From assembly GCA_023231475.1 (NCBI GenBank), contig JALJEE010001774.1, forward strand, positions 1-64,000: DNA of 64,000 nucleotides, in the 5' to 3' direction. The translations under genes were made by a program, and so were the position numbers. The notes under the pieces are model-generated. The model made no database searches. It saw only the letters and a list, made by a program, of their open reading frames with translations, and was not told where the DNA came from. How positions within the stretch are numbered: position 1 is the first letter of the stretch; each line of letters opens with the position of its first letter. Below, one piece after another: positions 1,302 through 47,284 of this stretch. This DNA comes from Seison nebaliae (taxonomy: Eukaryota).

Positions 1302-2708
1302 ATGTCACTAGTTGATTATTTTTCAAATAATGATTTAATATTAATCGATAATGATGTGAGTAATGATTATGAGAGATGGATTCGATTTAATTGGCCTGAT
1401 GTCCAGAAGAAATTCCATCAGTTGCAATCTCTTCTCAACTTGCATTGGAGCAAGTGTACTTGTTTGGATGAGTGGAATGTAAATGGACAAATTTATCAAA
1501 TGTTATTGTATGGTGAATATTTATTTATCTTACATTCATTAGAATTAATTCCCTTGAATGAAATGAATAATCTCATTACGACAATGATGGAATTGCTTTG
1601 GAAAGAACAACATTTGTCTGACAAATATGATAATTATTTGGAGAAGTTAAATGATAATGATTTGATAAATGATCTTAATAAGATCTGGAAGATTTACATG
1701 AAATGTCATAAAGGTCTTCTGGCCAATCAGAACATTATTGAGAGTGTTGCTTTCGATAATCGATTGGAATTATATGAAATGATGATTTCTAGCGATGTTT
1801 CTTGTAATTTATATCATCATTTTTCCAGCGTAGATTTGGGCGGTTTCATATTTCATTGGAAGTGGTTAAATCGTGAATTGAAGGATATTAATTTGTTGAA
1901 AAAATTTCTTTTAAAATTGGCAGTGAATGAAAATATGGAAAAATTTCTTTTCAATTTTGTCAATGTAAATAAAACGTTCGTCACTGACGCTAGAATAGTC
2001 ATGAAAAATGTCGAATCAAAAATTCTCAACATTCTTCAACATCAAGAGAAGGAGAACATTTCAACTTTCTCCTTACCCGAATCGCCAATTTCTTTAACAA
2101 ATGACAAAACGAATCATGTCTTGTCCTATCTGGAGGATAATTCATTTACAAACGACAGAAATTCGAGTACGAATAGTAAATATGATAATTTTGAGTTATC
2201 GATGCGAAAACAGCATAAAAAAAGGAAACGCTCTAGCTATCTTTCTTCGACCAAAGCGAAAAGTAGGAAAATGTTACGAGATGCAGATTCATTCGATTTC
2301 AATTCCATGGACATTGATGATATTATGAATGATCCATGTTGCGTCACTGAATATGATATTTGTTATATCGATCCATTTGATTTGATCATCTTCAATGGTT
2401 TCAATCGACCGACAGATCGTTTATTTATGGTCATTTTCCCTTATGGTGATACTTATCAATTGAGTTTTGTGGATAATCGAGAAGGAAAAAGAAAAATTAA
2501 ATATGAATCACCATCAGGAATTTATCCGTTTATTCCAGCTCCCGATTTGAGACATCAGATATATCGACATATAAAAACGAAAGAACAATCTTTATCGTAT
2601 TTGAAATTATCGGAGGAAAGAAAGAATCTTCGAAGAAAGTTTCTTGCGAAAAACGAATTTTCTAAATCATTTCGTATCGTCGTCAAAAAAGAATCGTTAC
2701 CAACTTAA
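1302..2708 (+). CDS. Uncharacterised 468-aa protein with a basic NLS-like stretch and possibly a degenerate C-terminal PWWP-like domain
   Basis: Long single ORF in very AT-rich DNA. Contains RKQHKKRKR and a C-terminal DPFDLI...YQLSFVDNR...IYPF pattern. Confidence 0.75.
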   Translation: MSLVDYFSNNDLILIDNDVSNDYERWIRFNWPDVQKKFHQLQSLLNLHWSKCTCLDEWNVNGQIYQMLLYGEYLFILHSLELIPLNEMNNLITTMMELLWKEQHLSDKYDNYLEKLNDNDLINDLNKIWKIYMKCHKGLLANQNIIESVAFDNRLELYEMMISSDVSCNLYHHFSSVDLGGFIFHWKWLNRELKDINLLKKFLLKLAVNENMEKFLFNFVNVNKTFVTDARIVMKNVESKILNILQHQEKENISTFSLPESPISLTNDKTNHVLSYLEDNSFTNDRNSSTNSKYDNFELSMRKQHKKRKRSSYLSSTKAKSRKMLRDADSFDFNSMDIDDIMNDPCCVTEYDICYIDPFDLIIFNGFNRPTDRLFMVIFPYGDTYQLSFVDNREGKRKIKYESPSGIYPFIPAPDLRHQIYRHIKTKEQSLSYLKLSEERKNLRRKFLAKNEFSKSFRIVVKKESLPT

Positions 2709-2848
2709 TATTTTTTCAAATTTTATCATCCATATCGTTTTATCCTCAAAATTTTTATTTTTTTAATTATCTGTTATATATTTACAATTTTCATTTATCC
2801 GTTTTCCACTTTCATAATAATGATCCAGTTTTTCTCCCTAAATAAATA

Positions 2849-4554
2849 TTATCCAAAATCTATCCGATCTCTTATACGTCTGCCATATAATTTAAATAAA
2901 ATTGCTGTGAATAAACTCAAATGTAACTGTTCAATTTCGGCTGCTTCCGATTTAGGGAACGATCGTCCTTCACCAGCGTGGATTTCATCGTTAATATATT
3001 CATCGATTTCTTCACTTGTCAATGTGGTGACCTGTTTGAGAAATGTTTATTATGATAATGGGAAATATGAAAACTTTGTTAAGATTAGTCAAATTCTGTA
3101 CAACTCTAGCAACGAAGTTGTCGATCTCATAATCTTTCGTCATATCTACAATGGTATTACGAGGTACTCGAGGTGGTTCTCTTGGCATTCGATTATATGT
3201 TCTCTTCATTTTTCTTGGATTAACAACATTGACATGAGATGGAATTGTTCGACCTATCAGATGATGATAATAATACAATAAAATAAAAAAGAAGAAAAAA
3301 CCATACATCGATGATTGGATTGATGGTCGGTTTGCTGACAACATGGAAGTTTTGGGAACTCGAGCATCTCTTGAAAATAGAGTTTGGTTAGTGGGAAGAA
3401 AAAATTAAATTTTTAAAATTAGAATAACTTCCGAATTCTAATACATACACAAATGGCTATGATGAGCATGACTAATAAAAATATCATTACACCGAGAACT
3501 ATATTAATTGTTGCTTTCTTTTTCCTCGTCGCTTCATCATCTGGTTCTACTGGTACTGGAAATGTGTGATTTACTTCAGGTTCTTTTTCCGGTTTCTTCG
3601 TCACTGTCTGACTTTTATGTTCCGCTTTAGTTTTATTTTTCGATTTATCTTCTTTTGGAGGATGTTTAGTGGACGAGTTCGATGGTATAGGAGTAGTTGA
3701 TGAATTCGAACTAGTTTTATTACTATTAGTTGTGTTACTTGTCTTGTCATGTGAAGTTATATTTGATGGAGCATCTGTAGGTCGGAGAGCAGTTAAATTT
3801 AAGTCATCAATTGAATGTATCCCAAATGCATTTACAACATAATCAGGAGCTAAATAAGTCGATCCTAAATTATAATAATCATTATCACTATCATCATATG
3901 CAGGATAGTAAGGAAATGGGATGTTTGACGAATCGACATTCTCCTTCTCAAGTACTTCCTCAGTCGGTTCACTATAATCAGGTAATTGTTCCGCAGGTTC
4001 AAGTGGGGAAGCGAAAGGATTACTCATTCGAGCATAAGCGGGAGATGTTTCTCGAGTTGGATAAATCGGTTGCATTCCTCTTCTCCTCAGTCCAAACCGA
4101 GTGATAGGTATAAAATGTGATAGTCGTCTTCGAGCTAAAACATTCCTACTACATATCTTACGACATGTCGGCATACATTGTGGTATACAATATTCTTTCA
4201 CCTTCAATATTTTCACTGGATTGTGTGCGAAACGATGAAATTTTTCATTCGACACACGTATCTTTTTAGCGGGAATAGCTTTAAAAAAAATTCGTTTGAA
4301 CAATAAAAAAACGGTTCGTAATAACCAAATCGCCCATACGTGTATATATGTTGTCTTCTTTTCGAACGTTTCTTTTTCGGTTGCGATCCCTTGTCTTGTG
4401 ACATTTCTTCCATTGAAGCAAAATCACCAGGTTGAGAAAAGTCATTATCTAACTCTTTCGATAAAGTTTGAAGCGAAATAAATTTATTTTTCGTATTGAT
4501 TACATTAGTATTAATGTAATTGAACGATAAAATTGTAAAATACAACAAAATCAT
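2849..4554 (-). CDS. Family member A: type I membrane protein (signal peptide, shared family motifs, Ser/Thr-rich stalk, TM helix, cytoplasmic tail), 5 exons
   Basis: Four GTT..AG introns join ORFs 4213-4626, 3419-4303, 3012-3344 and a final exon in frame, ending at TAA 2849-2851. Signal peptide MILLYFTILSF; TM IVLGVMIFLLVMLIIAICVCI. Confidence 0.75.
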
Positions 4555-4753
4555 TTTAAACAATGCGAAGGATGGAAAGAAGAAAATTATTTCACTTGTA
4601 CACGAGTTGGAAATATCTAGTTTCAATCGATCAATAAATAAAATATTGATTTAATTTTTCTACTTTTTTCAATAATCCTTAACATCATTAGATAATGATT
4701 AATTAAGTCAACAATGAAAGAAATTGTTACGCGTTAGTTCAAAATAGCTTATG

Positions 4754-5343
4754 TTAGGTTATATAATGAGATTGGCCATAAGACGAAGGTGAATAAGGAG
4801 TTAACGGACTGTAAGGTGTTAATGGAACAGTCATCCTAGCATAACCAGGATATTGTTGAGGACTTGGGTAGATGGGCGGTATGCTTCGTCTATGGTAAGG
4901 GCTGTGTTCTAACATTTTAAAATTATGGGCTAAACGTCGAAAAATAATGTCACCTTCAATTTGTTTTTTGGAAAGGACTCGGGCTTTCTCGCGATACAAT
5001 TTGTTCTCAAAGTTATACAATTTAACCGCAGAATAAGGTATATGGGCAGCTCCTTTGAAAGGAAAAAAATGAGAAACAAAAACAACATGTTCTAATAATA
5101 ACCATAAGTGTTGAAAGGATAATGTGAATGTCCATCTCGTTTCTGAACCTGTCTAGTTCTCGAATCATCAATAAGTCCTTTGTCTTGTGACATTTGCTCC
5201 ATCGAATCGTAATCTCCTTTCTGAATATAATAATTATCCATTTCGTTCACTAAATTGTTGTGCGAGTTACGTGTATTCTTCAGGTTGATGACGGTCGTTT
5301 CAACGAGATTTAGTAGGATTATACAGGAAAGTAGCGCGATCAT
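4754..5343 (-). CDS. Family member B: small secreted protein, 2 exons
   Basis: Signal peptide MIALLSCIILLNLVET, GDYDSMEQMSQDKG and KR site. An intron after FNTY-G joins ORF 4754-5020 in frame. Confidence 0.8.
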
Positions 5344-5869
5344 TTTAAACGATTGAAATGAGACAAAAATGAATTGGATGACAGATGAGGATTGTCAATT
5401 GATTTTCCTTTTCTAATTCGATTTATACTTTCCAATTTAATTGGAGATCAATATACATAATAATTTTTAATAATTTTTTTAAAAATTAATTTTTGTTACA
5501 ATAATTCTTTTCTTACTATTCTTTTATAGACTCTATACCAATCGATCGAGATTCTCTTACCAAATAACACCGATTGATCGACGTTGGCGATGATTGAAAT
5601 TTTTTAAATCTATTTTTTAAATATTATCCCGACGTGAATTTCATTAATAAACAATAATAATAATCGATTTTTATGATTATTTGAATCTCAAGTAGACTAA
5701 AATAAATCCAATAAAATATTACTTAAATAAAAAAATTAGAGATCAATGTTTATTGATGAAAAACACAGAAAAAACGGTGGTTGAAAACGACTATAGATAC
5801 TTAATAACAATCTTAATAATAACTGGAATGAATTTGATTCAAGAGGAAACATTAAGATAATAAAAATAG

Positions 5870-6426
5870 TTACACTCTTCGAAAATTGACAAATGGATTC
5901 CTCATATAACGAGGTACCATTCGATGAATCGGATAAATGGGAGAAATACTTCTTCTCACCTGATTATTCATCATGTTATATCTCTCACCTCCTGTCGTTG
6001 CAACACATTCAGGTTCACATTGTGGTGCACATTGTGGTTGACATTGATAAACCATTTTCTGTCTATGTTTCTTGCGCTGTCGATGTATTTTTGGTTTAGT
6101 TACTTTTAATTTGACGGCAGTAAATGGTATTCGAGCGGGTCCTTTTTTGAAGAAGAAATATAAAAATTGAAGGAGGATTAGAAGAAACCATATGTATTGA
6201 AAGGATAAGGTTCTTCTCTCTTTTCTACGTTTCTTTCTGCCGGCTCTCTGCTTAGACTACCTTTGTCGTGAGACATCTTCTCCATCGATGCGAATGCCCC
6301 AGGTAAAGAGTAATCGTTATTTAATTCGCTCGATAACGTGTTCAATAAATTTAATGTATTTTTCTTATTGATGTTGTTGGAATGAGCCAAATGGAATGAG
6401 AAAATCCCAAAATACAATAAAATCAT
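5870..6426 (-). CDS. Family member C: small secreted protein, 2 exons
   Basis: Signal peptide MILLYFGIFSFHLAHS, GAFASMEKMSHDKG and KR site. Same intron position as B, joining ORF 5870-6055 in frame (CQPQCAPQCEPEC, RRSISPIYP). Confidence 0.8.
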
Positions 6427-6481: not shown

Positions 6482-9210
6482 ATGAATCACACAGATGAAC
6501 ATTCCAATAATTTAGATGGCAATCGATATAATCTCATCTATCAAAATTCAGTATTGGAACATATACACAACTTAGAGAGTTGGGTGAATCGTCGATATGA
6601 TTCGATTTGGTTAATTGTCGGAGCGTTATATTTGACCATAGCCATTGCTTCCATCATTATTAATGTGTTGTCAATTTTAAAAATTAAAAATAATGTCGAT
6701 AAATTAGACAATTATTATATGGCAGCTATTTTTTCCCGTTCCATCGGAATCATGTATTCCTTCTTCTTCATCACTCCAATGGTTTGGTATTTGTTAGAGA
6801 AGGATACTCATAATTATTTCCATGGAATTCCATGTACAGTTCTCGGAATAGTTCACACATTTCTCACTCTAGCTATCGACTATTATTTAGCTCTCGAATA
6901 TATTTTCTGGTTAGTTTTTTTTATATTTTCATATCTTTATTCATTTTAATTTCACTAATATTAATTTAATTTTGTTAATTTAATTTTAATTTATTTTAAT
7001 TTATGTGAACTATATAAAATTTAATTTAATTTAGTTTTATTAATTTCATTCACTTTAATTTAATATTTTTAATTTCATTATTTAATTCTGTTTATCTTTA
7101 TATTTGGCAACCAAAAAATGACGTTTTAGTCTTGTAACATTTATTGAAGAATTTTCATAAAAGAATCTTAAGCTATATGGATCGATATGTTCGATAATAA
7201 TTATTATTTTCTCTCATTAATTTATTATTATTTTATCAATTTATTTTTCCACTACTTTTCTTCATCATCACTTCTCATTAGTTGTTCACAATCCACTGTT
7301 GTACCTAATATTTTCCGCCTATTTTTTCACATTCATAAGAGACGAGAATGTAAATAATCTACAATAGAAAAGTTTAATAAATTTCGTCCATCAACAAAAA
7401 ATTTAGCAGGTCAAATACCATAACATCATTCGACGGTGATGTACTTTTGAAGAATTTTTTATGATTTTTTTATATCAATGTCTTTTTCTTCCAACATTTT
7501 CATTTTTTCACACGAGAATCATGATTTAGATATGTTCAAATAATTTCTTTCAATGAAACTTTATTGAAATTCTTTAATGTCAAAAAAATATTGAAAAAAA
7601 TTTATTTGATTTTATTGTTTCAATGAAACTATATGAGACATCTAAAAGTTTAATAGATGAAATTTAAGTATTTGTCCCATTTCTTTTTTAGGGCTATCTC
7701 TGTCACGTTCACGATGGACGCCAAATCGCAATTGAACATTTTCTTGAGACGAATAATATTCGTGTCATTTCCATTATTATTAATTTATTCGATTGCACCA
7801 GCCTTCTGGTCAGCTCATGTATTTGTACCCGAAATTAATTCTTGTGTATATGATGTAAGAGATTTAGCGGTAGTACTTCTATTCCGAACGATCTTCCAAT
7901 TGTCGATACATATCGTTTTGTACTTATTCTTTCTACTCATTCTACTTTCTATTGTCAAAAATCAACAAACGATTATCAACATGTTACAGTTACAGTATGA
8001 CACTATCCTGTTTAATAAAGATGTCAACTTATTGAAACGTTATTCACTTCAATTGAATGCCTTAAATCAGTCACATACTAGAACTAAAAGTTCGGACAAT
8101 TCGTCATTCCGATTTCATAGAAGGAAAACTTTCGGTAAGTTTTTCAAAGAAAGTGAAGTGAAGTTACGAGAGACGTCAGAGAAGCAGCAGTTAGATGTTG
8201 CCCCAGATAAGGATCAGTTAATGACATATGTTGAACGAGATAACCGTTTGACAGAGATTGAGAAAGACACCGATATCATCAATAAAGAAATGACGATAAC
8301 TAAACAGACTTTATATTTTATGATTAGTCAAGCCGCGTTACATATACTTTATCTACTTCTCGTTCATTTATCCACTCTTCTCACATATTGGAACAACGAA
8401 TCGTTATTAGATCATCTTTATAATTATCAGTATATGATGGTACCGTTACTTTTAGCTAATATCATTTACATGATAATTATTCCATTAATTTTCATTCTAA
8501 TTAATCCCGATTGGATTAACATCACAATTTTCCATAAGGGTAGTAAGAAAATGAAGAAACAAGTCGACGAGAAAACGTCATTGAAACATCATTTGAAAAC
8601 GATCTCTTTGAAAGCTTATGAGATTTTCGACTTAAGAATTAGTTGTTGGCTCTTTTACACCATCAAATCGCCACTCTCTTTACAACAATTTCCTGAGCGA
8701 CATATTTACATTCCTTTAAGGAAAATGAGTGGACAAGTTAATGGTTCGAAATCGAAACACACTCCACAAAAACATTTGACCGAATGGTCATCGAAAAGAA
8801 ACGATCGATATTATAAAAAATTAAGACGATGGAAATTTATCGATCATGAAGATCGTTTTTTACACAATTTCTCAAACCGTTTCCATAACCATCATCCAGT
8901 GACGAAACTGAAAAAATCCGTCTCCGATTCCTATCTAGCTTGGCACCGTCTACATACGGAGAATGGTATCAGAACCATTACAGACGACGAACCAATTAAT
9001 GAGAATCGTGTTCTCTGGAACTTCGATACGGTTCGTGTGAACAAAGCTATCGGACGAGCAGATCGACCGCGTTGCCATAACGACCTGAGAATTTATTGTA
9101 GAAATGTTGAGAATGATTTAGCTACGACAACTTATTCGGATACCGAATGCTTTTCAGTTACCAATAATACCATAAAGAATAATATGTGTAGAACTTGTTT
9201 CTATTTCTAA
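6482..9210 (+). CDS. Highly divergent rhodopsin-class 7TM receptor, 2 exons (intron 6910-7691)
   Basis: TG|GTTAG...TAG|G rebuilds a Trp codon in frame. Seven hydrophobic segments, Cys at the top of TM3 and in ECL2, long ICL3 and C-tail. No DRY or NPxxY motif. Confidence 0.7.
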
Positions 9211-9500
9211 TTATTTATCGTTTTCGTTCCCATCTTCAATTTTTCAAATATCTCCAAATTAAAATCTCATTTTTTTTTTGAAAATAATGGAAAGAAAACA
9301 GAATAAATGTAAACTAATTTTTGAGAACGTTTCAGTTTTTTTGTGTTCTGATTAATTTTCAATCTTCTTTTCTTTTGTCCATTCTTTTTTATTAAGTTTT
9401 ATTTCCCCAAAAAGTTTTTAATTAATTTTGTTCTATTTCTCAGAAAAATAATCTGAAAAAATTAATTTTCAATTTCAAACAGAAAAAATTCATCAGAATA

Positions 9501-11004
9501 ATGACCGATAATTTGATTGACGGACATTGGGATGATTTGTTGAATATATTGAGGAATAAAGGTAAAATCATGGTGATGATGGGCGCCGGTTGTTCAACAG
9601 AATCAGGAATTCCAGATTTTCGGTGAATTATTTTTTTTTCGAAAAATTTCTTTCTAATTTTCTAGTTCACCAGAAACTGGTTTATATGCGACATTGAAAG
9701 ATTCTCAATTATCAAGACCAGAAGACATTTTCACATTGACATACTTTCGGAAGAATCCCAAACCGTTTTATGATTTGGCAAAGAATATTTTATTTCCAAT
9801 TCATTTTGCAATCAAAAAAAATCAAGAGAATTTGGATATAACTCAAAATTTCGTTTCACAATATCGACCGTCTTTATCACATTATTTAGTGAAATTATTA
9901 CAAGAGAAGAATAAATTGGGATATTGTTTTACTCAGAATATTGACGGATTGGAAAGATATGCAGGAATTGATGAGAACCGATTAATTGAAGCTCATGGGA
10001 ATATGTTCACAGGGAAATGTATCAAATGTTGGAAACGATATAATTTGAATGAAATTATTGAGAGAAGTGTTGCATCAAAAGATGGAATTCCTAGATGTAA
10101 CACAGATATGAGTGGAATGGACAAAAAGAAAATGATGAAATTAATTGCAGAATTGAACGACAATAATAATAATAATTGTGGTGGTGACGGTGATGATAAT
10201 TTAATAACAAATCAGGAAGAAGAAGAGAAAACTGAAATTTCAACAGAAATAACTGAAAAAGAAGAAGAAAATAGAACGACAGAAGAACCGAAAATTGAAA
10301 TTCGAACAGAAAAAATAGAAATTCCAATAGAACAAATTGAAAAAGAGGAAGAAAAAACGACAGTGGAAGAATCGAAAGATGATGTTCCTACATTTCCCCC
10401 AACAGCTTTTAATTTATTCGATGATGACGATGATGATTTTGTCAGTCTCTCCGAATTGACTAATAGAATTAAAAATTTAAAATTCGAGGAGAATCAGTCG
10501 CAAAATGCTCGTCCTGGAAATTGTTCAGGAATTCTTAAACCAGATATCGTATTCTTCGGAGAAGGGCTACCTGAAAAATTTATGAAATTTTCCAGGAAAA
10601 TTTTCGATGGAAACGCTCTCATTATTATGGGAACTTCATTGGAAGTTTATCCGTTTGCAAGTCTTCAAAATTTCGATGGATATCGATTATTATTAAACAT
10701 GAATCTTGTCGGTTCATTCACAAGTTCTTCGGAGAAGAAAGATTTGATGTTGTTGGGCAAATTGAAATACGGAGTCACTAAACTAATTCTGGACTTGGGA
10801 TGGGAGAAGGAAATGAGGAATTTGTTGATAGAAAGTAACGATAAAGAAATAGTTTTATTTTTTTTGAATTTAAAATTTTTTAAAATTTTTTTCAAGTTAA
10901 CAACATTCGACGAATGTTGCGAAAGAATGAAGAAAGATTATACGAAGAAACTTGTGCAGTATAGCGCATACGGACAACAACAAGCCAAATCATTGTTTAG
11001 TTAA
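9501..11004 (+). CDS. Class I NAD-dependent deacetylase (SIRT2/SIRT3-like sirtuin), 3 exons
   Basis: GAGCSTESGIPDFRSPETGLY (across intron 9623-9665), TQNIDGLE, EAHG, KPDIVFFGE and GTSLEVYPFASL. Second, in-frame intron at 10852-10896. Confidence 0.93.
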
Positions 11005-25400: not shown

Positions 25401-26439
25401 GAAGAAGAAGAAGAAGAATGGAGTGTTTCTCTAACAATTCAACGAAGAAATTTCTCCTTCTTATCTTCTTTAGTTTGTTCATCTAATCTCGTTGATCATG
25501 TGCGATAAATGAAAACGAATCAATTTAACTTTCTCTTCCTCTTAATTCGAGAAGTAGAGAAAGGTTCTCGGAGCAAATTGAATTTAATAGTTGCATGAAT
25601 TAATAGTGATCATCAATGATGATGTGTATGAGGGAGAAATCAAAAAAAAAAGAAACATTTTCTTCACAAAATTTATTATAATTCAATAATTGATTTTTTC
25701 CCATATTAAAATGAGTGTGATTATTCTAATCGTTCTTCATGGCCTCTTCAAGTTCAATATGTGGATTATCATGTTGTTATGTAATGATCATGCATTTGTT
25801 AAGTGCACTTTTCTTTCTCTCAATGAACGATCAGGTTTGAGTATGATGACGACGATGCTTCAAGTGGTTAATAAGTAAAAAAATCATTTCCTTCTTCTCC
25901 CTAGTCATATTGAAAGTATTATTATAGAAGTTTTATTCTCTTTAGCATTCCTCCTTTTTTTCCATCAATGATTTCATTCAATCTTTCCATCAAAACCATC
26001 ATTTCGATGACATTATGATGAACAGGTTAAAGAATAATCAAGAACATTAAACTTTCTTATATTCCTATCAAATTCCATTTCCAATGAACTATTCTATTCT
26101 ATTCCATTCCATTCTTCTTTCTTCTACTTCTTCTTCTTCTTCTATGACAAGAAGAAACTGATGTAATTTTGTCGATCGAACTACCAGATCGATTATTTCC
26201 CTAATGATATGAACTGAACGTCTCTGTGTATTTGGCATAAAACTGGAACTGATTTAAATTTCATAAACTTTTCATATTTTATGTCATTCCTTCACTTTCT
26301 TAAATGTTTATCACTTATTTATTTCTTCAATAATTCGTCGAATAATAAACGTCATTTATTTTTCATTTTTCATTTTCTCATAGAAATTTTCTTCTTTTTC
26401 CACGAAATTTAATGCTGCATTCGACTCAATAGAAGATTT

Positions 26440-29400
26440 GTGCAGATTTTATTTCAAATGAAACGAGTCAAATACAAGTTTGAAAGTGAAGAAAAAAAAT
26501 CGTCAAAATCGATAAAGAATAAACCGATACCGAAAATGACGAAATCGAATTCGTTTGACGAAGTTATGAATGAATCGTTCGATATAATTCCATCAAATAA
26601 ATTCATTGATGGTGCTGCAGAACGATCGATATTCGATGAGAACGAAGAAAATGAATCATTTAAATTCTTCCCTTTAGATCAACAGATCATGAGATTGACT
26701 TGGAATGTGATGGATAGTAAAAATGAAATGGTTCATTGTAACGGGAAATTAATGAAAGATGTTGAAATTAAAACATATCTCAACGCCAATCAATACGGAC
26801 AATCGAGTGGAGAAGAGAAGAAGAATATCGAAGTAAAATTAGTTCGGAATGAATTGATCGATTTTTATCGATTCGCTCCAAAAGAAACTTTCGATTGCAA
26901 TTTGACATATGACACTGGACATATCAATAACCATAAATCAATTTCCACTGCAATTCTTCTTCCTTATATGGAAGAGAAATTCATCTGGGAACCGTTGGAT
27001 GTTAGTAAACCGTCAGGTGAAATGATTGAATTACGTTGTACGGCACCAGCGGCATCACCACCAGCGAAAATTTTCTGGGTGAAAAATGGAAAATTGATCA
27101 TGTTAAGAAATACGATAATTGATAAAGAATTAGAAGAATTTTTAAGTGAACATCAAATTGATAAAATGGAAGATAATTCGAGATATTTGATGATGAATGA
27201 TAATTCGTTAGTGATTCATGAAAGTAACATAAAAGAAGATGATGGCGAATATATTTGTATCGCTCACAATTTGGCTCATACTCGAATGGCGAATGCGGCG
27301 AAAGTGAAAATATTCGAACCAAAAGGTTGGTCGTCATGGACATCGTGGTCGGAGAGTTGTCTGTTGAAGAAACAAATTGATAAATTAGCGATGGAATATC
27401 AAATTGATGGTAAGATATCGAACAATTTCATTAAATCTGATTATCCGTCATCATTGAATGAATTTTGTGAGGAATCGTATCACTTCAAATTCAGGAAATG
27501 TCAAGATAAGTCCTTCAAATCTGGAATAGTTTTATGTGATGGTGGATTGGCAAATTCAACAGAACTCCAACCATGTTGTACAATTTGGTCAGAATGGGAG
27601 AAGAATTTCATGAGAAATGATGAAGATTATGTACCGTCAAAGATTTTTTTGAATGATCATTTAAATTTCCATAAGAGAAAAAAGAAAGAGATTCGTTATC
27701 GAAGTTGTGGAAATTCGAAATTGGAAAGTGAAGTTTTCGAGAGGAAATTGGAAATTTTAGTAAACGAATTTTCTTGTCCGAGAGAGGAAGTGAGAGAATG
27801 TGACAAATTTAATTATTGTGAGAAAGTTCTGTCGAACAGCGATTATGAGAATGAATCGAAATATCTCAATATGTTGAATAATGGAAAATTGGATAGTTTC
27901 AATGGAAATAATAAAATTAATGACGGTCAATATTTGGGTGATTATAATGTGGAGTATGGACGGGAGAAATTATCAGATTATGTATTTGATGGAAATGATT
28001 ATGGAAATGAAGGTGAACGAATTATTGAGAAGGATTTCATTTATAACGATGATTCGTCATTCATTATCGATGATTCTTCATCATCATCATCACCGTCGAA
28101 TGGATTGTTGGAGGAGAAAGTGAAAATAAATTATAATTTATTAGAAAATTTTAAAAATTTAAAAAATTCTAAAATTGCCATTATTTCCAGTGTCAGTTCC
28201 ATTAGTATTATTCTGCTAATATTAATCGTTCTATTGATGTTATTCATTCGGAAGCGATGGCAGAAGAAGAGGAAACAAAATCTTGCATTCCGCAACGAAT
28301 GGAAGCAACAACAATTGCAACAACAACAACAGATGAGACAGGATCATAATTCTAATCAATATCAACATCATAATTTAGAGTTTGGAAATAATATGTATTC
28401 ACATTATAATTCGTCGAATAATGAAACATATACGATGAATAAAAATACGAATGGAAGTAATGTGGAGAGGAAGAAAGGAGGAATGTATGGTTATGTCAAT
28501 CCGTTAGATTATAATCAATTAAGTCGATCACCAGGATTCTTTTCATTCTTAACCAAATCGAAAAGATTAATGAAAAATAAAGATAATGAAGAAGAAGAAA
28601 TTATTTTGAATTCCACATCTAATCAACGTTATGATGGTGAGTGTAATGGAAATAATAAACAGTTTATCGATTATCCATCTTATGAGGAACATAAAAAATT
28701 CGAATCTTATCCATTCACTCAACACAACAATTTATTGACAAATATTGATAATTATATCAATAATTCTTCAGATATCTGTCCACAACACACCTACCAACAC
28801 CATCACCATCATCAACAACAACAACAACAACAACATCATTTAATTCACCATCAACATCAACCACAACAACAACAACATCAACCGAATTTCAATGATAATA
28901 TTCATCATCATTATCATTGTAGTAATGACGGTTCGATGACGGATGGCAATCTTCAATTGTACGATCAAAATAATAATAAATTGGATTCCAATCAAGTGAT
29001 GATGTTGACCGATCCACAAATTATTCAAAAAAATAATAATTCCATTGCATCATCTGATCGTTCCACCAATTTCTCCAATAACAATAAAACAGAATCGATT
29101 ATACTATCAGGAAACAAAAGTGAAGATATTTCCCCATCATCTACTTCACCTCAACAATGTTCCAGTCAAATGAAACCAGAATATTTCATACGTATGTTGT
29201 CGAATGGCAATGATAGTATTTATCATCAATGTATTAATATTAATGATTATTATAGTAATTCAAATGTTCGTCATTGTAACGAGAATCAAGTGAAAAATGA
29301 TTCCGCAAGATTAACATCAACTCGAAGTGTTGCCACCACGAAAGATGACGATGGAAATAATAAGAGAAGGAAGAAAAGATCTTCCAGGAAACGAGTTAAA

Positions 29401-29808
29401 CCGTTGAGACAAGATAACGATTCGATGACGTATGAAACGGCATCGATCACAATGTTGAATTCTTCCGAACTACAACAATACCAAACCACCAAACAACCAG
29501 TTGCACAGTCATTATATTTAGACGGGATTATTCTACCTCATGAAATGAATAATCCACATCATAACAACGATACTGAAATTGAGAATAAACTCGATACGAG
29601 AGATAGTTGTTTCTTCGATCAAACAAACACCATTCAGGATTATACATCCTCCTCCGCCAGTAATAACACTCATGAAGATAAAATATCACCAAATAATCAT
29701 CCGGCATCGAATCGAAAAGGAATGAGTATGAACATTAAACGATTCGAACGAACAAATTCTATTTCAGTAGAAAACGATCCAATATATCAAAGTATTAAGA
29801 CACAATGA
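26440..29808 (+). CDS. UNC-5-like netrin-receptor-type protein (Ig, Ig, TSP1-like, TM, long N/Q/H-rich tail); 5' exon not located
   Basis: HCNGKLM; PYMEEKFIWEPL...IELRCTAPAASPPAKIFWVKNG; DDGEYICIAHNLAHTRMANAAKVKI; GWSSWTSWSESC; TM IAIISSVSSISIILLILIVLLMLFI. This parallels the UNC-5 ectodomain. Confidence 0.75.
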   Translation: MQILFQMKRVKYKFESEEKKSSKSIKNKPIPKMTKSNSFDEVMNESFDIIPSNKFIDGAAERSIFDENEENESFKFFPLDQQIMRLTWNVMDSKNEMVHCNGKLMKDVEIKTYLNANQYGQSSGEEKKNIEVKLVRNELIDFYRFAPKETFDCNLTYDTGHINNHKSISTAILLPYMEEKFIWEPLDVSKPSGEMIELRCTAPAASPPAKIFWVKNGKLIMLRNTIIDKELEEFLSEHQIDKMEDNSRYLMMNDNSLVIHESNIKEDDGEYICIAHNLAHTRMANAAKVKIFEPKGWSSWTSWSESCLLKKQIDKLAMEYQIDGKISNNFIKSDYPSSLNEFCEESYHFKFRKCQDKSFKSGIVLCDGGLANSTELQPCCTIWSEWEKNFMRNDEDYVPSKIFLNDHLNFHKRKKKEIRYRSCGNSKLESEVFERKLEILVNEFSCPREEVRECDKFNYCEKVLSNSDYENESKYLNMLNNGKLDSFNGNNKINDGQYLGDYNVEYGREKLSDYVFDGNDYGNEGERIIEKDFIYNDDSSFIIDDSSSSSSPSNGLLEEKVKINYNLLENFKNLKNSKIAIISSVSSISIILLILIVLLMLFIRKRWQKKRKQNLAFRNEWKQQQLQQQQQMRQDHNSNQYQHHNLEFGNNMYSHYNSSNNETYTMNKNTNGSNVERKKGGMYGYVNPLDYNQLSRSPGFFSFLTKSKRLMKNKDNEEEEIILNSTSNQRYDGECNGNNKQFIDYPSYEEHKKFESYPFTQHNNLLTNIDNYINNSSDICPQHTYQHHHHHQQQQQQQHHLIHHQHQPQQQQHQPNFNDNIHHHYHCSNDGSMTDGNLQLYDQNNNKLDSNQVMMLTDPQIIQKNNNSIASSDRSTNFSNNNKTESIILSGNKSEDISPSSTSPQQCSSQMKPEYFIRMLSNGNDSIYHQCININDYYSNSNVRHCNENQVKNDSARLTSTRSVATTKDDDGNNKRRKKRSSRKRVKPLRQDNDSMTYETASITMLNSSELQQYQTTKQPVAQSLYLDGIILPHEMNNPHHNNDTEIENKLDTRDSCFFDQTNTIQDYTSSSASNNTHEDKISPNNHPASNRKGMSMNIKRFERTNSISVENDPIYQSIKTQ

Positions 29809-33389: not shown

Positions 33390-36300
33390 ATGTATTCAAT
33401 TCTCTACCTCATATTCATTCTTGTCAAAGTTTATTAAATTTTATTCATATTTCAAATTCTAATTCAACGACAATTAGATAAGTGTTATACAAACCATCAA
33501 TTTCTATAAACATGAAGGACAGATCGAACAGAAACTTCACGAGTTACCGAAAGAAAAACGTCAGAATTTCACATTTCTCACAATTTGAATTCTCATTTTT
33601 ATTCTAGTTAAATTTATTACAACAATCCCAAAAGGATCGAAGAATATTCTCATAAACGAATTGGAGAATACTCAAAATTACATTTGTTTCATTTTCATTC
33701 TTCTATTATTTTTTAAAAAATTTTTCAATTTTCAGTATTATGGAATATCAATAATGAATCATATCCATTACATTCACCTGAAATCTCATTGAAACATGAC
33801 GTTCGACGATGGAATATTTTAATTCCATCAGAAAATTATGTTATTGCCAATGCCACTTTTCGATACGAACGGAAACCACATTTATTTTATGGATCTGATT
33901 CATTGTCAACCAACCAAACCATCAACGAATCACTAGACGTCTATGTTAATCGATTATTTATTAAATATCTTTAATAAATCTTTAATTATTAAATTCTCTT
34001 TAGTTATTATTGAACGATGGACGAATTTCAGTTGAATTTTCAATGGAAATACCAGAAAATGTTGTAGTTATCGGAAGTAATTCATTTAGATGGATAACTG
34101 AAGATTGGTTAGAATGTTCTTCATCGTGTGGAGAAGGTTTTACTTCATTAATTTATTGACAATTTGAGAAAATTTTAAAGGAATTTCAACAAGAAAAGTT
34201 CATTGTTTCAGCGATCGAGCCAAATCGGTAGTGGTGGACAGTTTGTGCGAAAATATCAAAATTAAATTTGAAACGAAAAAAAATTGTTTCTCACAAAAGA
34301 ATTGTTTGAAAACGTTAGAAAAATTTCTTTCGAATATGTTAATTTAAAATATGTTTCTAGTCCGAAATGGTTCGCAACTCCATGGAATGACTGTGGAGAA
34401 TGTGAGAGAAAAATGGAAATTGTGGAATTGAAGAATCGGAAGAAACGAAGTGATTATTATGAATATAATATTTATCAATCGGACGATTATAATTTGAAGA
34501 ATTCATTCATTGATGATTCATCATCATCCTCATTCTCACAATATGAAATCGATACCAGTAATGATGGTAATGATGGTGATAATGAAAATTATCAAAATTT
34601 AACGAAAAATAAAATCTACAAAATGAATTCAAATGAACGAACATTTATTCGAATGAAATTCAAAGGGAAACGTTCGAGACAACTTTCCTGCATCTCATTA
34701 ATTTTGCGGAAAGAAATCGCCAGTTCTGATATTGATTTAACTGGTGCGATATTGAAAGGAGAAATTCCGATAAAATATCATCCAGTCACAGAATGTATGG
34801 AAGAGAAACCGGTAGAAACGGAAGAATGTGATTGTGGAGAAAGTTATGAATTAATTGAGAGAAGTTCCGGAACGAATAAAAAGATTTGTAAAGAAATGAA
34901 AATTATCGATTTGTTATTGAAACGAAGTGGAATGGAAATGGAGAAGGAATTCAAAGAATTTTATGAAAATCTCAACATTTCCTTAGAACAATTTGATGAG
35001 AATGAATTTACGTGTGTTTTTAGAAATTCAACGGAAAATTCAATTTTCGATGTTTCAACTGATGAGAATCATGAGAAAAATTGCACTCTACTCGTCAATG
35101 AAATGTTTGAGAAATCGGCAACATTCTGTTCGGAAGAGAATTATATCGATTGGTTCTCCATCAATCATATTGATAATTGTCCATTATTATGTGATTCCGG
35201 ATATGTTCCCGTGAAATTTACCTGTGTTTTATTTACAAATGACAAGAACGAACATATTGAATTACATAAGAATGTTTGTGATTTATTGGGAATTAAGAAT
35301 AAGAATTCTGATTTTAATTATTGTCAAACTTACATTCCATGTGAACAAGCCATTTGGATGAAGAATGGACATGGAGAACATATCTGCATTGCAGGAAGTC
35401 GAGCCGTTCATGAAAATTGGTGTTTTGGGAAAGAACCATTCTATTCGCAGAATCATAAACAAATCAATCGAACAATCAATCAATTACCTCAATGGATTAA
35501 AGTGAATAAGAAAAAATTTAATTCGAAAATAATAAATTCGGATAGAAATAAAAGTAACGAAACTTTCCAATGGTTCTCTACCGATTGGGAATTGATTGAG
35601 AAGAATGTAACACATTCAATTTTCGGGAGAAATAGAAGATGTATAAAAAATATTGAAACTTTTATCGGTTATTTGCTGGTTCCCGAATCGGATTGTAGTC
35701 AACTGAAATCGCCAGATTTAAGGAAATATCGGAACAATTATCAATTATTCAGTGATGATGAAAACATATTCTCAATCGATACAATTGAGAATGGCGATGA
35801 ATTTAACGATTACAATTTATGGAATCGATATATTCAATTTAATCATAAAGTTCGATCTTTTTTAAATATTTTTATTCAAATTTAATTTCTATCAAAGAAT
35901 AAGGAGAGAAGTAAAAGAGACGAGCAAAATCAATTATATGATAATAATTTCATTCAACACAATTCCTGTGATATTTCCAAATATGGTTGTTGTCTTGATG
36001 GATTAACAACTGCTCAAGTTCTATTAATTCAGATGGAAAATTAAATGAAAAATTAAAATTTTTTATGCGACCTAATTTTGGATGTTTCAGGGTGAAAATT
36101 ATGAAGGATGTTCCCATCGATTGCCCAGACTGGCGAAATTTGGTTAGAAATATTATATGTTAAGAAAAGATATTTTTATTTGTAATTTAAAGATAAATGT
36201 TTGGAACGATTGCTTGATAATGAGATTATGGGAAATGGCCAAGTGTTTTGGTATTTCAATAAAGAATTTGGTAAATGTGAAAAGATAAAGGATAAATATC

Positions 36301-39300
36301 CATTGAATATCGTTAATCAATTTCAGAGTGAAGATGAATGTCAATCGACTTGTATTGAACCGAGAGAAGTTGAAGGTTAATTTTAGGAAAATTCAATTTT
36401 AAGTATTGACATGATAGAAATATCACAAAATGGATTATATAGATTGGTGTTATATGCCGAAAATTGAAGGTAAATGTTCTGGGAATGAATTGGGGGGAAG
36501 TGGTTGGCAATTCTATTTCGATACGATTACGAACAAATGTGAAATGTTCACTTATTCGGGTTGTAATGGAAATAAAAATCGTTTTGGGACAGAATTCGAA
36601 TGTTTGAAATTATGTAAATATGGAGAATTCATTCGGAAAGATCAGATTCAAAATAGTCAAGACTTTCCACTAAATTTCGATTTGATTCGAAGACAAATGT
36701 TTAATGTTGACGGTTCCAATGTTTATTGAAATTTATAAGTTCAATTTTTTGGTAGATGTTTGTGGTTTGCCGAGTGAACAAGGTCCATGTCGAGGTCAAT
36801 ATAACCGTTGGTTTTATAACGCAAAAATAGGGATTTGTGCACCGATGGTATATGGAGGATGTAAAGGAAATGCGAATAATTTCATTAAAAAAGAAGATTG
36901 TGAGAATCGTTGTAAGAAAGGCAATTCGAATTGTTAGTTAATTTTTCGATATTTCGAATTTTTCAAATTTCTTTTAGTTCGTTGTGTTCTTCCGAAATCG
37001 AGAGGAACTTGTCATGACATGTTAAGGAGATGGTATTTCAATGTGAAATCAATGAAATGTGAACAATTCTCATATAGTGGATGTGATGGTAATGGGAATC
37101 AATTCCATTCGAAAGAACAATGTGTGGTGGAGTGTGGTGGGACAATGGTGGGAATCGAATCTAATATGAATCAAAACAGTTTTATTTTATAAAGAAATTA
37201 TGAAATTAAATTAATTTGATTTCAGATAATCTTATTACGAAAATCGAGTCACGTTGTGATGCGACGGCGGCACCAGAAACGGTATTCGAAGTCAATAGTT
37301 ATTTCGACCAGAGGAAAGGTGTTCAGATATTTGTGAATAAATATCAGCAAGAGAATGGTGATAAATTATTTTATTATTTCAATAAAATTTCAAGTTTTCC
37401 CAAATTTATTTCTCGAAATTAAAACTGTTTAATTTTTAGAATCATGTCAACCAATAAAATATTATCGATATGAATCGATATTAACATCATCGGATCAAGA
37501 GAATGTTATGTCGATCTTGGATTATGAAAAACGATCGAGAGAAGATATTGTTAATTCGAATCTCTTCCTCAATCTCTCCATTTGCGAGAAAGTTTGTGAA
37601 GGAAAAAACTATGGTTTCTTTTTATTGTGCATTGTCTAACTTTATAATGATTATGAAGATATTTGTAAATTGGAATTCGAGGCAGGTAGTTGTGATAATT
37701 GGACGAATAAATATTATTATGATGATCGAACAGGAAGATGTCAACAATTCTATTATGGTGGCTGTGACGGGAATAAGAATAATTTCGATAGTGAATTTCA
37801 GTGTTATTTCAATTGTAACCAAGATGTGATCCGTGAGAAATTGAAGGAGAAAGAACAAATTACAACAACTCCAATTCTCACATTACCTACAACTACCACA
37901 CTAAATATTTTGGAGGAAGATATTTGTTAGAAATTTATATTTAAAAAAAATCTTAAAAATTTTTTCTTCAAAAATAGATGGAATGTGTTCCATGTCGATG
38001 TTGGTTGGAATTCCATGTAGTCGGAATGTATCTCATCATTTGAATGAATGGAAGAATTATTGGTATTATGATATACGGATACAATTGTGTAGTCAATTCT
38101 TTGGACATCAATGTGGTGGTAATCTTAACCGTTTTTTGAGTGAAGATGAATGTACGAAGAAATGTAAATATTCAAATTATTATCATCCAGATATCGGTTA
38201 TAAGAATGAGAATAATTTATTATTAGTTAGTAATCATTATGAGTTGGGAAAAGAACCCGAACTCTCCATAAGAGACGCAATTCTCAACTGGAATTCATAC
38301 GAGAAATCTAACTACCAAATGTCAAGTTTCTTTTTTCAAAAAACAATTTAATAATTTTCGATTTTCTAAAGATTACAATCTGAGAAAATGTTCATCGAAT
38401 TCGAATGATAATTTGAAAGTGAGTTGTGGATATCTGAATGAATATTCGAACGAATTAAATGAATTGTTGGGGAATGGTCTAATGAAAAGTTTTTTGACAA
38501 CAAACAAATCTTTACGAGTTTTCTCCATTCTGAATCATGTGGAGAGAGTTGTATTCGACAATAACTTCTGTCGTGCACGAAATATCTCTATAATTTTCAA
38601 TTTTATTTTGGATGATGAAACGAGAGAAATTTTGAATGAAAATCTTCTAAATGTTTTATCGGAAAATAATTCGGTTCTTGTCAATAAATGTTTCGAAAAG
38701 AAATCTCCATCAAATGCATTCGATCTTCTCCAATCGGAGGAAAATATGAATATAAGAAAATTGAATTCATATTTCTCATCAAGAATCTTTATGAATTATA
38801 AGGAATGTGCAGCGGTATGTGAACGATATGAAGCGAACAGTTAAAATTTCTTTCGATAATTTCTAGTTAAGGTAAATATCTTTCAGGAAAATGTTTCGCA
38901 CAAAGACAACAAATCAGATGTTATAATCGGCCGAATGATAAGAAGTATTATTATCATTCAAAGAAAAAGAAATGTCAAAAATTTCCGGATCGAGGTTCAT
39001 TCCCAAATATTTTAAAAGATAATGAAAATAATATTGTTTTAGTTTGTGGAACAGGAGATAATTCATTCAAAACTTTCGACAATTGTGATTATATTTGCGA
39101 TAAAGATTATTTCACCAAAGAAACCACTACTGATGATGATACACAAAGGAAAATTCAAAATTTACCTACTCCAAATTCTTCTCCTCATCCAACTTATCCG
39201 CCAAGAGAACGACAGACACAAAAACCGAAAACTTCGAGAATTACTCCACTTTTTACGACAACTACTTCATATTCAACAATTCGTATTAATGAACATATTG

Positions 39301-40663
39301 AACAATGTCCAAGTACAACAAGACGAATCGGTTTCTGTCGAAAAATTTGTGAGAAATTATCAGAATGTAATCCAAATGAGATTTGTTGTATTGATGCGAC
39401 TTTAAGGAATCCGTTCACCAATAAAGATCAACGATGTTGTCGAACAATTGAAGATACGAGTTCCTTCGTTTCTTTTCCGTAAAATTTCAAAAATATATTT
39501 TTTAGGTAAATTTATTTTAGTTAGTGGAAATAAGAGATTTTCGAATAATCATCCCGATGGTGAAGAATGGCTCCGTATTCGATCGCCGTATAATCTTCAA
39601 TGTGAGACGAATGCAAATAATTTACGTTTATATGACGCCCAAAATAAATTGTTGGGTGACACATCGAACGAGGCAACTCGACGATTAATAAGTTAAATTT
39701 TCGTTCGTACAAAATAAACCGAATAAATTTCTCAAGATAACAACATTAATATTATGACAACAAGCAACTCAATATTTATTGGAATTTATCGTATCAATAA
39801 ACAACATTATGGCACTTGGCGATGCTTATCATCAGTCAATGGAGTAACACTTCAACGGAGTGTGATGTTAAAGGAAGAAGGTTTCCTTATCTATTTCTTT
39901 TCAAGTCTTTTCATGTTAATCAGAACCTCTTCGAGTACATGTAACACCGAATGATCAACGGAAACATATTGACGTATCAGCTCAAATCAATTGTATCGTC
40001 AATGGGAAGCCTCAGGCGAATGTTAAGTGGCAATGGAGAAAATCCACTGAATTCCCATATCAGCAACTTAATACTAATTTAAAGTTCATTTTCTTTTCAA
40101 TTAACTTTTAATTATTTGGCGAAATATGAGTAGTGCGGAAGTTCGGCGAATTCCATCGGAAAATGGAATTAATTATCTATTGCGATTAAGAAGAATTCAA
40201 TCGAATAACGCCGGAATTTATGAATGTGTTGCAACAGATAATTTAGGAAGAATGGAGAGACGTACAAGTATTCTTCACGTGCTCAATCGTTAATAGACCA
40301 TCTCCATTATCGTTTTTTTGAAAATTGTATACATCTTCTAATGTTGTTGAAGGTCGACGCACTATCAATCAAGATCGAACGAAAATAACCACACTATCTA
40401 CAACATCGCCAATTGATGAAGAGAAATGTGTTGACAAGAATGTTCCAGGTAAGTTTATTTAAAAAAAATCTAATTTTTTCTCATTTTCCCTAAAGACTAA
40501 CAAAAAAATTTCTAATTGAAATTCTCCATTTTTTCTTTTCTTCATTAATTCTCTTTATCATAATTTCATCGATACAGGTATTCGTTGTGATCTGGTTGTT
40601 CGGTACAATATTTGTACTTATCGAAAAATTTTCGGTGAAATTTGCTGTGGGTGCAAAAAATAA
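33390..40663 (+). CDS. PAPLN: Papilin-like extracellular matrix protein (ADAMTS spacer, TSP1 repeats, papilin-type Cys repeat, ~8 Kunitz domains with some degenerate, 2 Ig, PLAC), >20 exons
   Basis: Signal peptide MYSILYLIFILVKISVIQT; spacer TTIPKGSKNILINE..NY; WLECSSSCGEG; CDISKYGCCLDGLTTAQGENYEGC; Kunitz motifs (YGGCKGNANNF and similar); Ig NAGIYECVATDNLG; PLAC CVD..CDLVVRYNICTY..EICCGC; stop 40661-40663. Confidence 0.85.
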
Positions 40664-43600: not shown

Positions 43601-44086
43601 TTGTGAGAAGGTGATGATATTTGGAGAGAAGGTGATAAGTTCGAAAGAGATGATTGATGTATTTATTAAACTGCTTCATTAAAGAAGCGAATGTTAATGA
43701 TATATTTGAACGAATATTAATATCATGTTGGAAGACATTATAAGATGTTTATGTGAAGTGAATTGATGTATCATGCGAGAGGAAGAATGGAAGCGATCAG
43801 TTTTTGATGGATCATCTTCCGATCTATCTATTATTTTAAAATAATTACAAATATTAGATAATCATACGATGAAAATTATGAGGAAGAGATTGTTTGTGTA
43901 AAAAGTAAAATAATAAAAATCTAAATCTAAAATCATAAAATTTATTCCATCAGAATAATTCGTTTAATAATTCTCCCTGAAATTATAATTTTTTTGTTAA
44001 TTTTCAAGAATAATTTTCGAAAGTTAATTATTCATAATAATCTCTTTTCAATTACTGATATGGGAGAATAGAGGGATTGGAAGAAG

Positions 44087-45956: not shown

Positions 45957-47284
45957 TTATTCCGTGCCGATCAATTCATTAACTAGAAAATGGAAAATTA
46001 TAAGAAAATTAAATTTTTAAAAATTTCAAAACTGTTCATTGGCATCTCATCGATCTGTGTCGAATAGAATTGTTCGATGTCACGTAATAATTGAATATCA
46101 TCACTTCGAGCGAAATTAATTGCGACTCCTTTTCGTCCAAATCGTCCCGAACGACCAATACGATGAATATATAATTCTCGATTATTTGGTAGATCATAAT
46201 TGATAACTAATGAAACAGAAGGAACATCTAGTCCCCGTCCACAAACATCGGTTGATATGAGAACTCGTCTAAAATAAAAAGAGAAAAATTTAAATTTAAA
46301 AAAATTTTTAAAAAAATTTTTAAAAAAATTTGAAAAGAAATTTAACGTTTTTGCATCTCGAAATTGTTTGACAATTCCTTCACGTACTTGTTGTTTCATA
46401 TCGCCATGTATTGATGATACAGTAAAATTAGATTCTTCCAATTGATTCGCTAACCATTCCACTTTCCGTCGAGTATTACAAAAAACTACTGCTTGAGCTA
46501 CCGTCACAGAATCATAAAGATCACATAAAGTTTCAAATTTCCATTCTTCCCGATCTACAGCAACGAAGAATTGTCGAATACCTTCCAATGTCAATTCGTC
46601 ACGATTCACCAAAATTCGAATTGGTTCCGTCATAAATTTATTTGTGATTTCAATAATTTCTCTCGGTAAAGTGGCGGACAAGAGAACAACTTGTGTCTCT
46701 GGTGGAAGATGACGATAAATAGCATGAATTTGTTCACGGAATCCTTTATTCAACATCTCGTCCGCTTCATCTAACACGAGAATAGAAATATTTGACGTTC
46801 TCAAATGTCCTCGTTCTATCATGTCAATTACACGACCAGGTGTCCCACTTATCACATGTTGACCATAATCTAATTTCCTGATATCTTCATTCAAATTCTT
46901 CCCACCAATACACGAATGACATTGCACGTTCATATAGTCACCTAAAGCTAACATGACACATTGGATCTGTTGGGCTAATTCACGTGTGGGAGACAAGACT
47001 AATGCTTGACAATCACGATGTTCAATTTGAAGTCGCTGCAATATGGAAATACAATAAGTGGCAGTTTTTCCAGTTCCTGATTGTGATTGTGCAATTACAT
47101 CTCGACGACGAATTATTGGACGGATGGCACGTTGCTGAATTGCTGACGGTTTCTCAAATCCATATGAATAAATGCCACGAAGTAAATTTCGGTTCAATCT
47201 CATATCATCGAAACTACGATAGACACCAATATTCTCATTCGTCTTAAAGTCTTTTTCGCTTAAATCATTTGTAATCGTTGGCAT
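45957..47284 (-). CDS. EIF4A3: DEAD-box RNA helicase eIF4A-III (exon junction complex core), 3 exons
   Basis: [76 protein letters not shown]. Introns at 46269-46346 and 45983-46032; the spliced C-terminus is MPMNINELIGTE*. Confidence 0.95.

Follow-up and report, generated by a model that had tools for sequence, protein, structure and literature searches.

A tandem trio of related genes

The stretch of DNA analyzed here, referred to as the window, comprises 64,000 nucleotides of the rotifer Seison nebaliae (GenBank assembly GCA_023231475.1, contig JALJEE010001774.1, positions 1 to 64,000 of the forward strand) and has a guanine-cytosine (GC) content of ~31%, densely packed genes, and short introns. 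Our subject is three adjacent minus-strand genes, here called C, B, and A, which a sequence-only reading had described as related genes with a common start that encode propeptide-like secreted proteins. The common start is confirmed: GTTTAAAATG opens all three genes (6433, 5350, and 4561) and has no other match in the window, with a shuffle mean of 0.60 and three matches reached in 2 of 100 shuffles, and GTTTAAA directly precedes each start codon (C, 6426; B, 5343; A, 4554). The degenerate pattern SMExMSxDKG, with at most 3 mismatches allowed, is found at exactly three places in the window, a number that none of 100 shuffles reached. The features of the locus are listed below, with a slash marking a predicted cut.

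6189 to 6426, minus strand: C exon 1, encoding a predicted signal peptide, the conserved N-terminal segment, the first dibasic site, and YPFNTY; matches the public model SNEBB_007809
6260 to 6288, minus strand: SMExMSxDKG of C, residues 47 to 56
6142 to 6188, minus strand: C intron, 47 nt, phase 1, GTTT...AAAG, 26% GC, with an in-frame stop inside; spliced in the same way in the public model
5870 to 6141, minus strand: C exon 2, encoding the basic middle segment, the four-cysteine motif (6043 to 6005), RR/SISPIYP, and the stop; protein of 169 amino acids
5103 to 5343, minus strand: B exon 1, with TATAAA 84 nt upstream of the ATG
5177 to 5205, minus strand: SMExMSxDKG of B, residues 47 to 56
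5053 to 5102, minus strand: predicted B intron, 50 nt, phase 1, GTTA...AAAG, with an in-frame stop inside and an alternative AG 3 nt further on; placed from the sequence only
4754 to 5052, minus strand: B exon 2, encoding a middle segment without the cysteine motif and RR/SIPPIYP; protein of 179 amino acids
4326 to 4554, minus strand: A exon 1, encoding a predicted signal peptide, the conserved segment, the polybasic site KKKRSKRR, and QHIYTYGRF; matches SNEBB_007807
4388 to 4416, minus strand: SMExMSxDKG of A, residues 47 to 56
4279 to 4325, minus strand: first intron of A, 47 nt and in phase 1; relative to TYG, it lies 9 nt downstream of its position in B and C
3429 to 4278, minus strand: A exon 2, encoding the basic middle segment, the four-cysteine motif (4189 to 4151), and RRR/GMQPIYP (4087 to 4079)
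2849 to 3428, minus strand: A exons 3 to 6 with introns 2 to 5, encoding a predicted cytoplasmic tail of 126 amino acids
3428 to 3370, 3301 to 3254, 3074 to 3032, and 2927 to 2880, minus strand: A introns 2 to 5, all GT-AG, 43 to 59 nt

The three genes are old tandem paralogues under purifying selection. Whole-protein identity is 32 to 40% pairwise, and local alignment z-scores (500 shuffles each) are 34 to 41 for the whole proteins, 19 to 25 for exon 1 once the signal peptide is removed, and 9 to 11 for exon 2. All three have a hydrophobic N terminus, an intron in phase 1, and two dibasic sites that align, as well as the KR site, TYG, RR(S/G)(I/M)xPIYP, and Y(A)RM/YMR that the sequence-only reading had listed. 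The serine of SME is residue 47 in each protein, with no insertion or deletion before residue 56. Synonymous divergence (dS) is 1.33 to 1.72 versus a nonsynonymous divergence (dN) of 0.55 to 0.72 over 154 to 157 aligned codons, values that are rough since they come from the Nei-Gojobori method applied to three sequences near saturation. About half of the identical residues are encoded with silent differences (34 of 55, 34 of 68, and 29 of 57 across the pairs), and invariance is highest in the tyrosine, proline, isoleucine, glycine, and methionine columns (47 to 56% of occurrences). The core up to and including SMExMSxDKG has a dN of 0.17 to 0.36 and 50 to 71% identity, compared to 27 to 35% identity in the middle piece and 45 to 48% in the PIYP piece. 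The segment of highest constraint is thus the very one that had been called a propeptide, and its description as a throw-away spacer is doubtful.

The first introns of C, B, and A measure 47, 50, and 47 nt, are of the form GTT...AG in phase 1, and contain 23 to 26% GC, compared to 31 to 40% in the exons; five pyruvate carboxylase introns in the window (42 to 139 nt) and the four further introns of gene A are of the same kind. Our spliced model of C is identical, letter for letter, to SNEBB_007809 (P0121), and exons 1 and 2 of gene A give the first 360 residues of SNEBB_007807 (P0122); both are predicted models, and this is agreement with them rather than proof. The gene B protein was not found in the protein collections searched, by exon-1 profile, family profile, or direct look-up, and it is presumably annotated under the free tag number between A and C. 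The missing B entry is what could be held in favor of a gene-model artefact or of nonfunctional copies, a reading that we give hardly any credence: the frames are intact despite nearly saturated silent sites, dN is below dS, the introns have canonical form and share the size and GTT...AG type of others in the locality, and the public models agree for A and C. No fourth copy is present in the window (best other tblastn match, E of 0.27); for the remainder of the genome, the search for paralogues covered predicted proteins only. Four sequencing runs compared with positions 2600 to 5440, the part with genes A and B, gave only matches of 18 to 33 nt, with no junctions, and are uninformative on splicing and expression.

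Gene A encodes a predicted membrane-anchored paralogue

Gene A had been taken to end near 4040. Its exon-2 frame, however, stays open for 197 codons beyond the shared module, which none of 20,000 shuffles did, and a six-exon reconstruction exactly reproduces SNEBB_007807, a protein of 486 amino acids that ends at 2849. Left unspliced at 3428, the frame stops at 3419 and gives 362 amino acids; polyadenylation-type hexamers follow 2849, and none is found within 260 nt past 3419. The additional sequence encodes an acidic, tyrosine-containing segment (about 3991 to 3812; 8 tyrosines and 13 aspartates or glutamates in 60 amino acids), a serine-, threonine-, proline-, and lysine-containing stalk (about 3799 to 3518; 28 serines or threonines and 11 prolines in 94 amino acids, with eight N-x-S/T sequons), and a hydrophobic helix (about 3502 to 3446; residues 336 to 354; 19-residue Kyte-Doolittle mean of 3.4) followed by RIRK. 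With its sequon-rich stalk, hydrophobic helix, and inner basic residues, the product of gene A is likely a type-I membrane protein with a mucin-like stalk. Since the frame of A runs into a helix of transmembrane strength, only B and C of the supposedly secreted trio look secreted. The cytoplasmic tail of A has no match in the PDB and only two weak, unrelated hits in Pfam; a likeness to cadherin tails that we had considered was not supported by the Pfam comparison.

This architecture is analogous to that of PSGL-1 and CX3CL1, surface proteins of the sialomucin or stalk-tethered type. Gene A has, as they do, a predicted signal peptide, a furin-type R-x-K-R site followed by glutamine, an acidic tyrosine cluster, a serine/threonine/asparagine stalk, a single predicted transmembrane helix, and a predicted cytoplasmic tail, and likely soluble paralogues adjoin it. 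The likeness does not extend to the sequence, where no similarity was found, and the head module of A belongs to no known family.

A phase-1 intron directly after the TYG motif had been proposed for all three genes. This is correct for B and C, whose introns follow TY-G, but intron 1 of A follows TYGRF, 9 nt later. In an ungapped alignment of TYG-xxx-IP, the intron of A may have slid, or compensating insertions and deletions may have occurred; alternatively, aligning YTYGRF-A with YPFNTY-G would keep the intron position and make the TYG of A coincidental. The 3' end of intron 1 of A (4279 to 4311) also matches a 34-nt piece, with two differing letters and one gap, that ends exactly at the acceptor and lies on a different contig in three sequencing runs; another part of the genome probably has an intron with a similar end.

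Searches for relatives and known folds

No homologue outside Seison was found in protein-profile or DNA scans, in keeping with the earlier suggestion of a lineage-specific family. An exon-1 profile run against 1.84 billion representatives gave seven matches at an E of ≤0.001, two of which were C and A themselves. The other five were dropped, being long helical-repeat proteins that matched positions 14 to 50 in four to seven stretches (E of 3e-5 to 6e-4); three are named as fungal and two are unnamed, and one has a cluster member named for a CHAT domain. A profile of the whole family matched 2 of 4,881 candidates (lengths of 44 to 851), again the family itself, and exon 1 of B matched none of seven candidates among longer proteins. 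Four unspliced or partial readings were absent from the protein collection. DNA scans gave 0 of 598 for metagenomes, 0 of 601 for viral sequences, and 1 of 158 for prokaryote genomes; the single match lies inside a 583-amino-acid Vibrio open reading frame (ORF), recognizable as a DNA primase, and was judged to be a chance match. No orthologue from the second strain appeared in the collections searched, where the presence of that strain's proteins is not established.

Pfam returned only subthreshold matches and no neuropeptide family, the PDB sequences gave no match at an E of ≤10 for the family profile or for A, and no assignment to a known family could be made. In the Atlas, the best score was 0.80 (A exon 2) and C had no usable match, neither of which indicates novelty. 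The AlphaFold model of C has one N-terminal helix and no confident globular fold; with a predicted local distance difference test score (pLDDT) of 52 and a predicted template modeling score (pTM) of 0.18 from a four-row alignment, it is too poor to be used and cannot show disorder.

The trio is, then, a real orphan family of three members, undescribed and ordinary in design; its one surprise is the membrane-tethered paralogue predicted from gene A. Among the matches listed in a literature search (titles and the starts of abstracts), none concerned the trio proteins, nothing was found on secreted or surface proteins of seisonids, and the 10 papers listed, out of 18 with the tag prefix SNEBB, are on plant pathology or herbicides. 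A rotifer neuropeptide survey, which describes the NP-HMMer set of models of invertebrate neuropeptide families, covers four other rotifers and not Seison (10.1101/2024.07.20.604414). Seisonids comprise four described species with a compact genome of ~46 Mb, and two genetically distinct strains are reported (PMC8351084); the Acanthocephala, parasitic thorny-headed worms, are placed as their sister group (PMC8351084, PMC3919803). About 40% of metazoan BUSCO genes are given as missing in Seison (PMC12256650), and a loss of this size on the Seison branch makes the absence of homologues for the trio unsurprising.

The cysteine motif

C-x3-C-x3-C-x3-C had been noted in A and C, and these are indeed its only two occurrences in the six frames of the window (C, 6043; A, 4189). 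The spacing is that of Pfam C_tripleX (PF02363), the best Pfam match of C (E of 0.003 to 0.007), but scores stay below the cutoff of 22.9 bits, both with exon 2 (18.2 for C and 15.1 for A) and with the whole proteins (17.0 and 14.1), and the motif is present in a single copy in A and C, is missing from B, and lies in otherwise unrelated sequence. A minicollagen-like cysteine domain had also been suggested. Cnidarian minicollagens do resemble these proteins in having a signal peptide, which is predicted for the trio, and the C-x3-C spacing, and they carry a pro-segment that ends in KR, as the trio does. The suggestion nevertheless fails, since the group 1 cysteine-rich domain of minicollagens is described as having six cysteines, CXXXCXXXCXXXCXXXCC (PMC4195985), while the motif of A and C has four and B has none, G-x-x triplets, as in a Gly-X-Y repeat, nowhere follow one another three or more times in A, B, or C, and the host is a rotifer.

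Dibasic sites and predicted products

By hydropathy and inspection only, the first 11 to 16 residues are hydrophobic, with 11-residue means of 2.2 in C and 3.1 in B, and the proteins would enter the secretory pathway. Two [KR]R alignment columns are common to A, B, and C, and B and C each have only three dibasic pairs. The first site reads R-N-V-E-K-R/E, R-Q-V-Q-K-R/D, and K-K-R-S-K-R/R, so that P6 is basic in each of the proteins and gene A has a complete R-x-K-R (R-S-K-R); the second reads RR/S, RR/S, and RRR/G. A basic P6 and R-x-K-R fit the preferences of proprotein convertases. In these conserved dibasic sites in a convertase context, C, B, and A fit the design of a convertase-processed proprotein, in which cleavage is predicted, and the earlier idea of processed proteins is probably right. 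The predicted products are a near-neutral N-terminal piece of ~50 amino acids (net charge of -1 to -3), a basic middle piece of 65 to 73 amino acids (+4 to +14) with the four-cysteine motif in A and C, and a proline- and tyrosine-rich C-terminal piece starting with (S/G)(I/M)xPIYP, which would be free in B and C (26 to 43 amino acids) and bound to the stalk in A. The tail of B is rich in tyrosine, proline, and serine, with 7 tyrosines, 10 prolines, and 11 serines or threonines in 43 amino acids.

The sequence-only reading had pointed to a pyroglutamyl and amidated peptide in A, and KRR-QHIYTY-GR is indeed present there. A classical neuropeptide precursor yielding pGlu-HIYTY-amide is nonetheless very improbable. 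The peptide occurs only in A, and at its place B and C read TYG-A and TYG-P; its release would need a cut at a single arginine, and monobasic cleavage calls for a basic residue at P4, P6, or P8, none of which is basic here; it lacks a paracopy, and the protein that carries it is a predicted membrane protein. The single G-R is found only in A, an amidation signal of the type G-[KR]-[KR] is absent from B, from C, and from the A ectodomain, and none of the three proteins contains a repeated peptide. A likeness of SELNNDYSLP in C to pigment-dispersing factor was also rejected, as this stretch has no flanking processing sites and is not kept in B.

Insulin-type B-C-A prohormones, bindin, and ovulin are convertase-processed precursors, and as in these, two conserved segments of the trio proteins flank a more variable one between dibasic sites. 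The trio differs in having no conserved cysteine frame, amidation signals, or sequence match and in having one membrane-anchored paralogue. Insulin/relaxin-type prohormones have six conserved cysteines in the B and A chains, whereas no cysteine is found in the conserved N- or C-terminal segments of the trio.

Possible functions of the trio

Seisonids produce spermatophores and attach by an adhesive foot; our literature search found no paper on either. The reading that we favor, tentatively, is that the trio encodes precursors that convertases would process into parts of an extracellular coat or adhesive, B and C being the soluble components and A the membrane anchor. We arrive at it because of the combination of predicted secretion signals, basic tyrosine- and proline-rich products, optional cysteine cross-linkers, a stalked membrane paralogue, and the absence of neuropeptide hallmarks. 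Beyond gene structure, the steps are ones that we infer. Proprotein convertases would cut the precursors at the two shared dibasic sites and separate the near-neutral, conserved N-terminal piece from the basic middle piece and the proline/tyrosine-rich piece, the last of which would be released as a free peptide in the case of B and C and would remain, in A, at the tip of a glycosylated stalk. Cleavage could act as a maturation switch that lets the basic, aromatic pieces attach to one another or to an acidic surface; the four-cysteine motifs of A and C could supply disulfide links. In A, the module would be anchored in the cell membrane, and the material might form a surface coat or an adhesive layer, used as a body coat, as attachment glue, or in an egg or sperm packet.

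Several observations speak against a coat or adhesive. The predicted signal peptides are short and without a basic n-region, and that of C is weak (19-residue mean of 1.07). Outside both sites, a basic residue is matched by basic residues in the other two proteins in 24 of 64 cases (38%), and with this background the conserved dibasic pairs are moderate evidence only. The "pro" piece is the most conserved one, which fits less well with a simple mask than with a functional peptide, and the cysteine motif is absent from B. Glue and coat proteins are typically long and repetitive, and the trio proteins are short. Finally, the annotated 126-amino-acid tail of A would equally suit signaling.

The main rival is a lineage-specific signaling family, in which B and C would be prohormone-like precursors of soluble ligands and A a membrane-tethered, juxtacrine form, with the receptor possibly encoded by the adjoining gene; we regard this as unlikely, if less so than the other alternatives. 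The conserved-variable-conserved layout split by KR and RR, which resembles that of B-C-A prohormones, the N-terminal conserved piece of exactly the same length to residue 56, the strongly constrained short pieces at the N and C termini, and the module-stalk-helix-tail layout of A all agree with it. So does a plus-strand gene with features like those of G protein-coupled receptors (GPCRs) that lies head to head with C (6482 to 9210), with six hydrophobic segments above the threshold, an N-terminal sequon, and DYY at the DRY position. Its ATG lies 55 nt from that of C on the opposite strand, so the promoters or 5' untranslated regions of the two genes must overlap. The trio, however, lacks an amidation signal, shared cysteines, and paracopies; the neighbor has no Pfam 7tm match, and its GPCR identity is a reading of the sequence; and since short gaps are usual here (140, 199, and 526 nt) and another GPCR lies at 44 to 46 kb, the adjacency says little. 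A narrower version, a ligand system found only in seisonids, in which a cut at the second site would free (S/G)(I/M)xPIYP...YARM peptides from B and C and expose the same N terminus on the stalk of A, appears quite improbable. If it were true, one motif would signal in both a soluble and a cell-tethered form, perhaps through the GPCR-like gene.

Among reproductive proteins, of which bindin and ovulin are examples, tandem genes of this orphan, basic, dibasic-processed kind are typical, and A could be a recognition protein of the sperm or egg surface, with B and C as processed seminal or acrosomal proteins. Seisonids are described as epizoic rotifers on Nebalia crustaceans that are strictly sexual, with well-developed males (PMC8351084), which would fit such a role. 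We rate it somewhat below signaling, as dN is below dS in every segment tested between the paralogues, with no sign of positive selection at this depth, where synonymous sites are near saturation.

Less probable again are precursors of cationic antimicrobial or host-interaction peptides from which the basic middle piece is released. Antimicrobial peptide precursors combine a conserved prepro exon with a variable basic part, and the trio likewise has a conserved prepro exon and a basic, more variable exon 2. Against this, the pro-piece is near neutral and not strongly acidic, the long middle pieces have only moderate amphipathicity (hydrophobic moment mostly 0.6 to 0.8), and such peptides do not usually come with a membrane anchor and a cytoplasmic tail. 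An exchange with the host would have its setting on the gills of Nebalia, which are given as the habitat of Seison (PMC3919803).

An old and conserved orphan family with soluble and membrane forms is a candidate for self-coating, adhesion to the crustacean host, or gamete handling. Orphan secreted genes are expected on the long, thinly sampled seisonid branch and the design is familiar, and the value of the trio is that of a lead.

Neighboring genes

Pfam and homology searches identified ordinary genes around the trio: a sirtuin with a long acidic insert (9500 to 11004), an immunoglobulin-domain membrane protein (26413 to 29808), a Kunitz-domain protein (34272 to 39482), a rhodopsin-family GPCR (44072 to 45775), a DEAD-box helicase (45998 to 47347), a pyruvate carboxylase (47755 to 51746), a sulfotransferase (60192 to 61025), and a flavin adenine dinucleotide-linked oxidase (62688 to 63320). 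Over residues 1 to 450, the pyruvate carboxylase frame matches SNEBB_007816 of Seison nebaliae at 100% identity, and the next match is at 70%. A 468-amino-acid ORF without a Pfam hit (1302 to 2708, plus strand) lies tail to tail with gene A, the stop codons being separated by 140 nt.

A second pair of orphan paralogues consists of two adjacent single-exon ORFs on the plus strand (53434 to 54861 and 56585 to 58159) without Pfam hits and with a composition rich in methionine, glycine, and proline and in asparagine, glutamine, and serine. They share the motif PFTSxPxQGxVMNxPSAxRxxxSRS (21 of 35 residues identical; E of 8e-9) and, close to the C terminus, GFxPxPxLGH.

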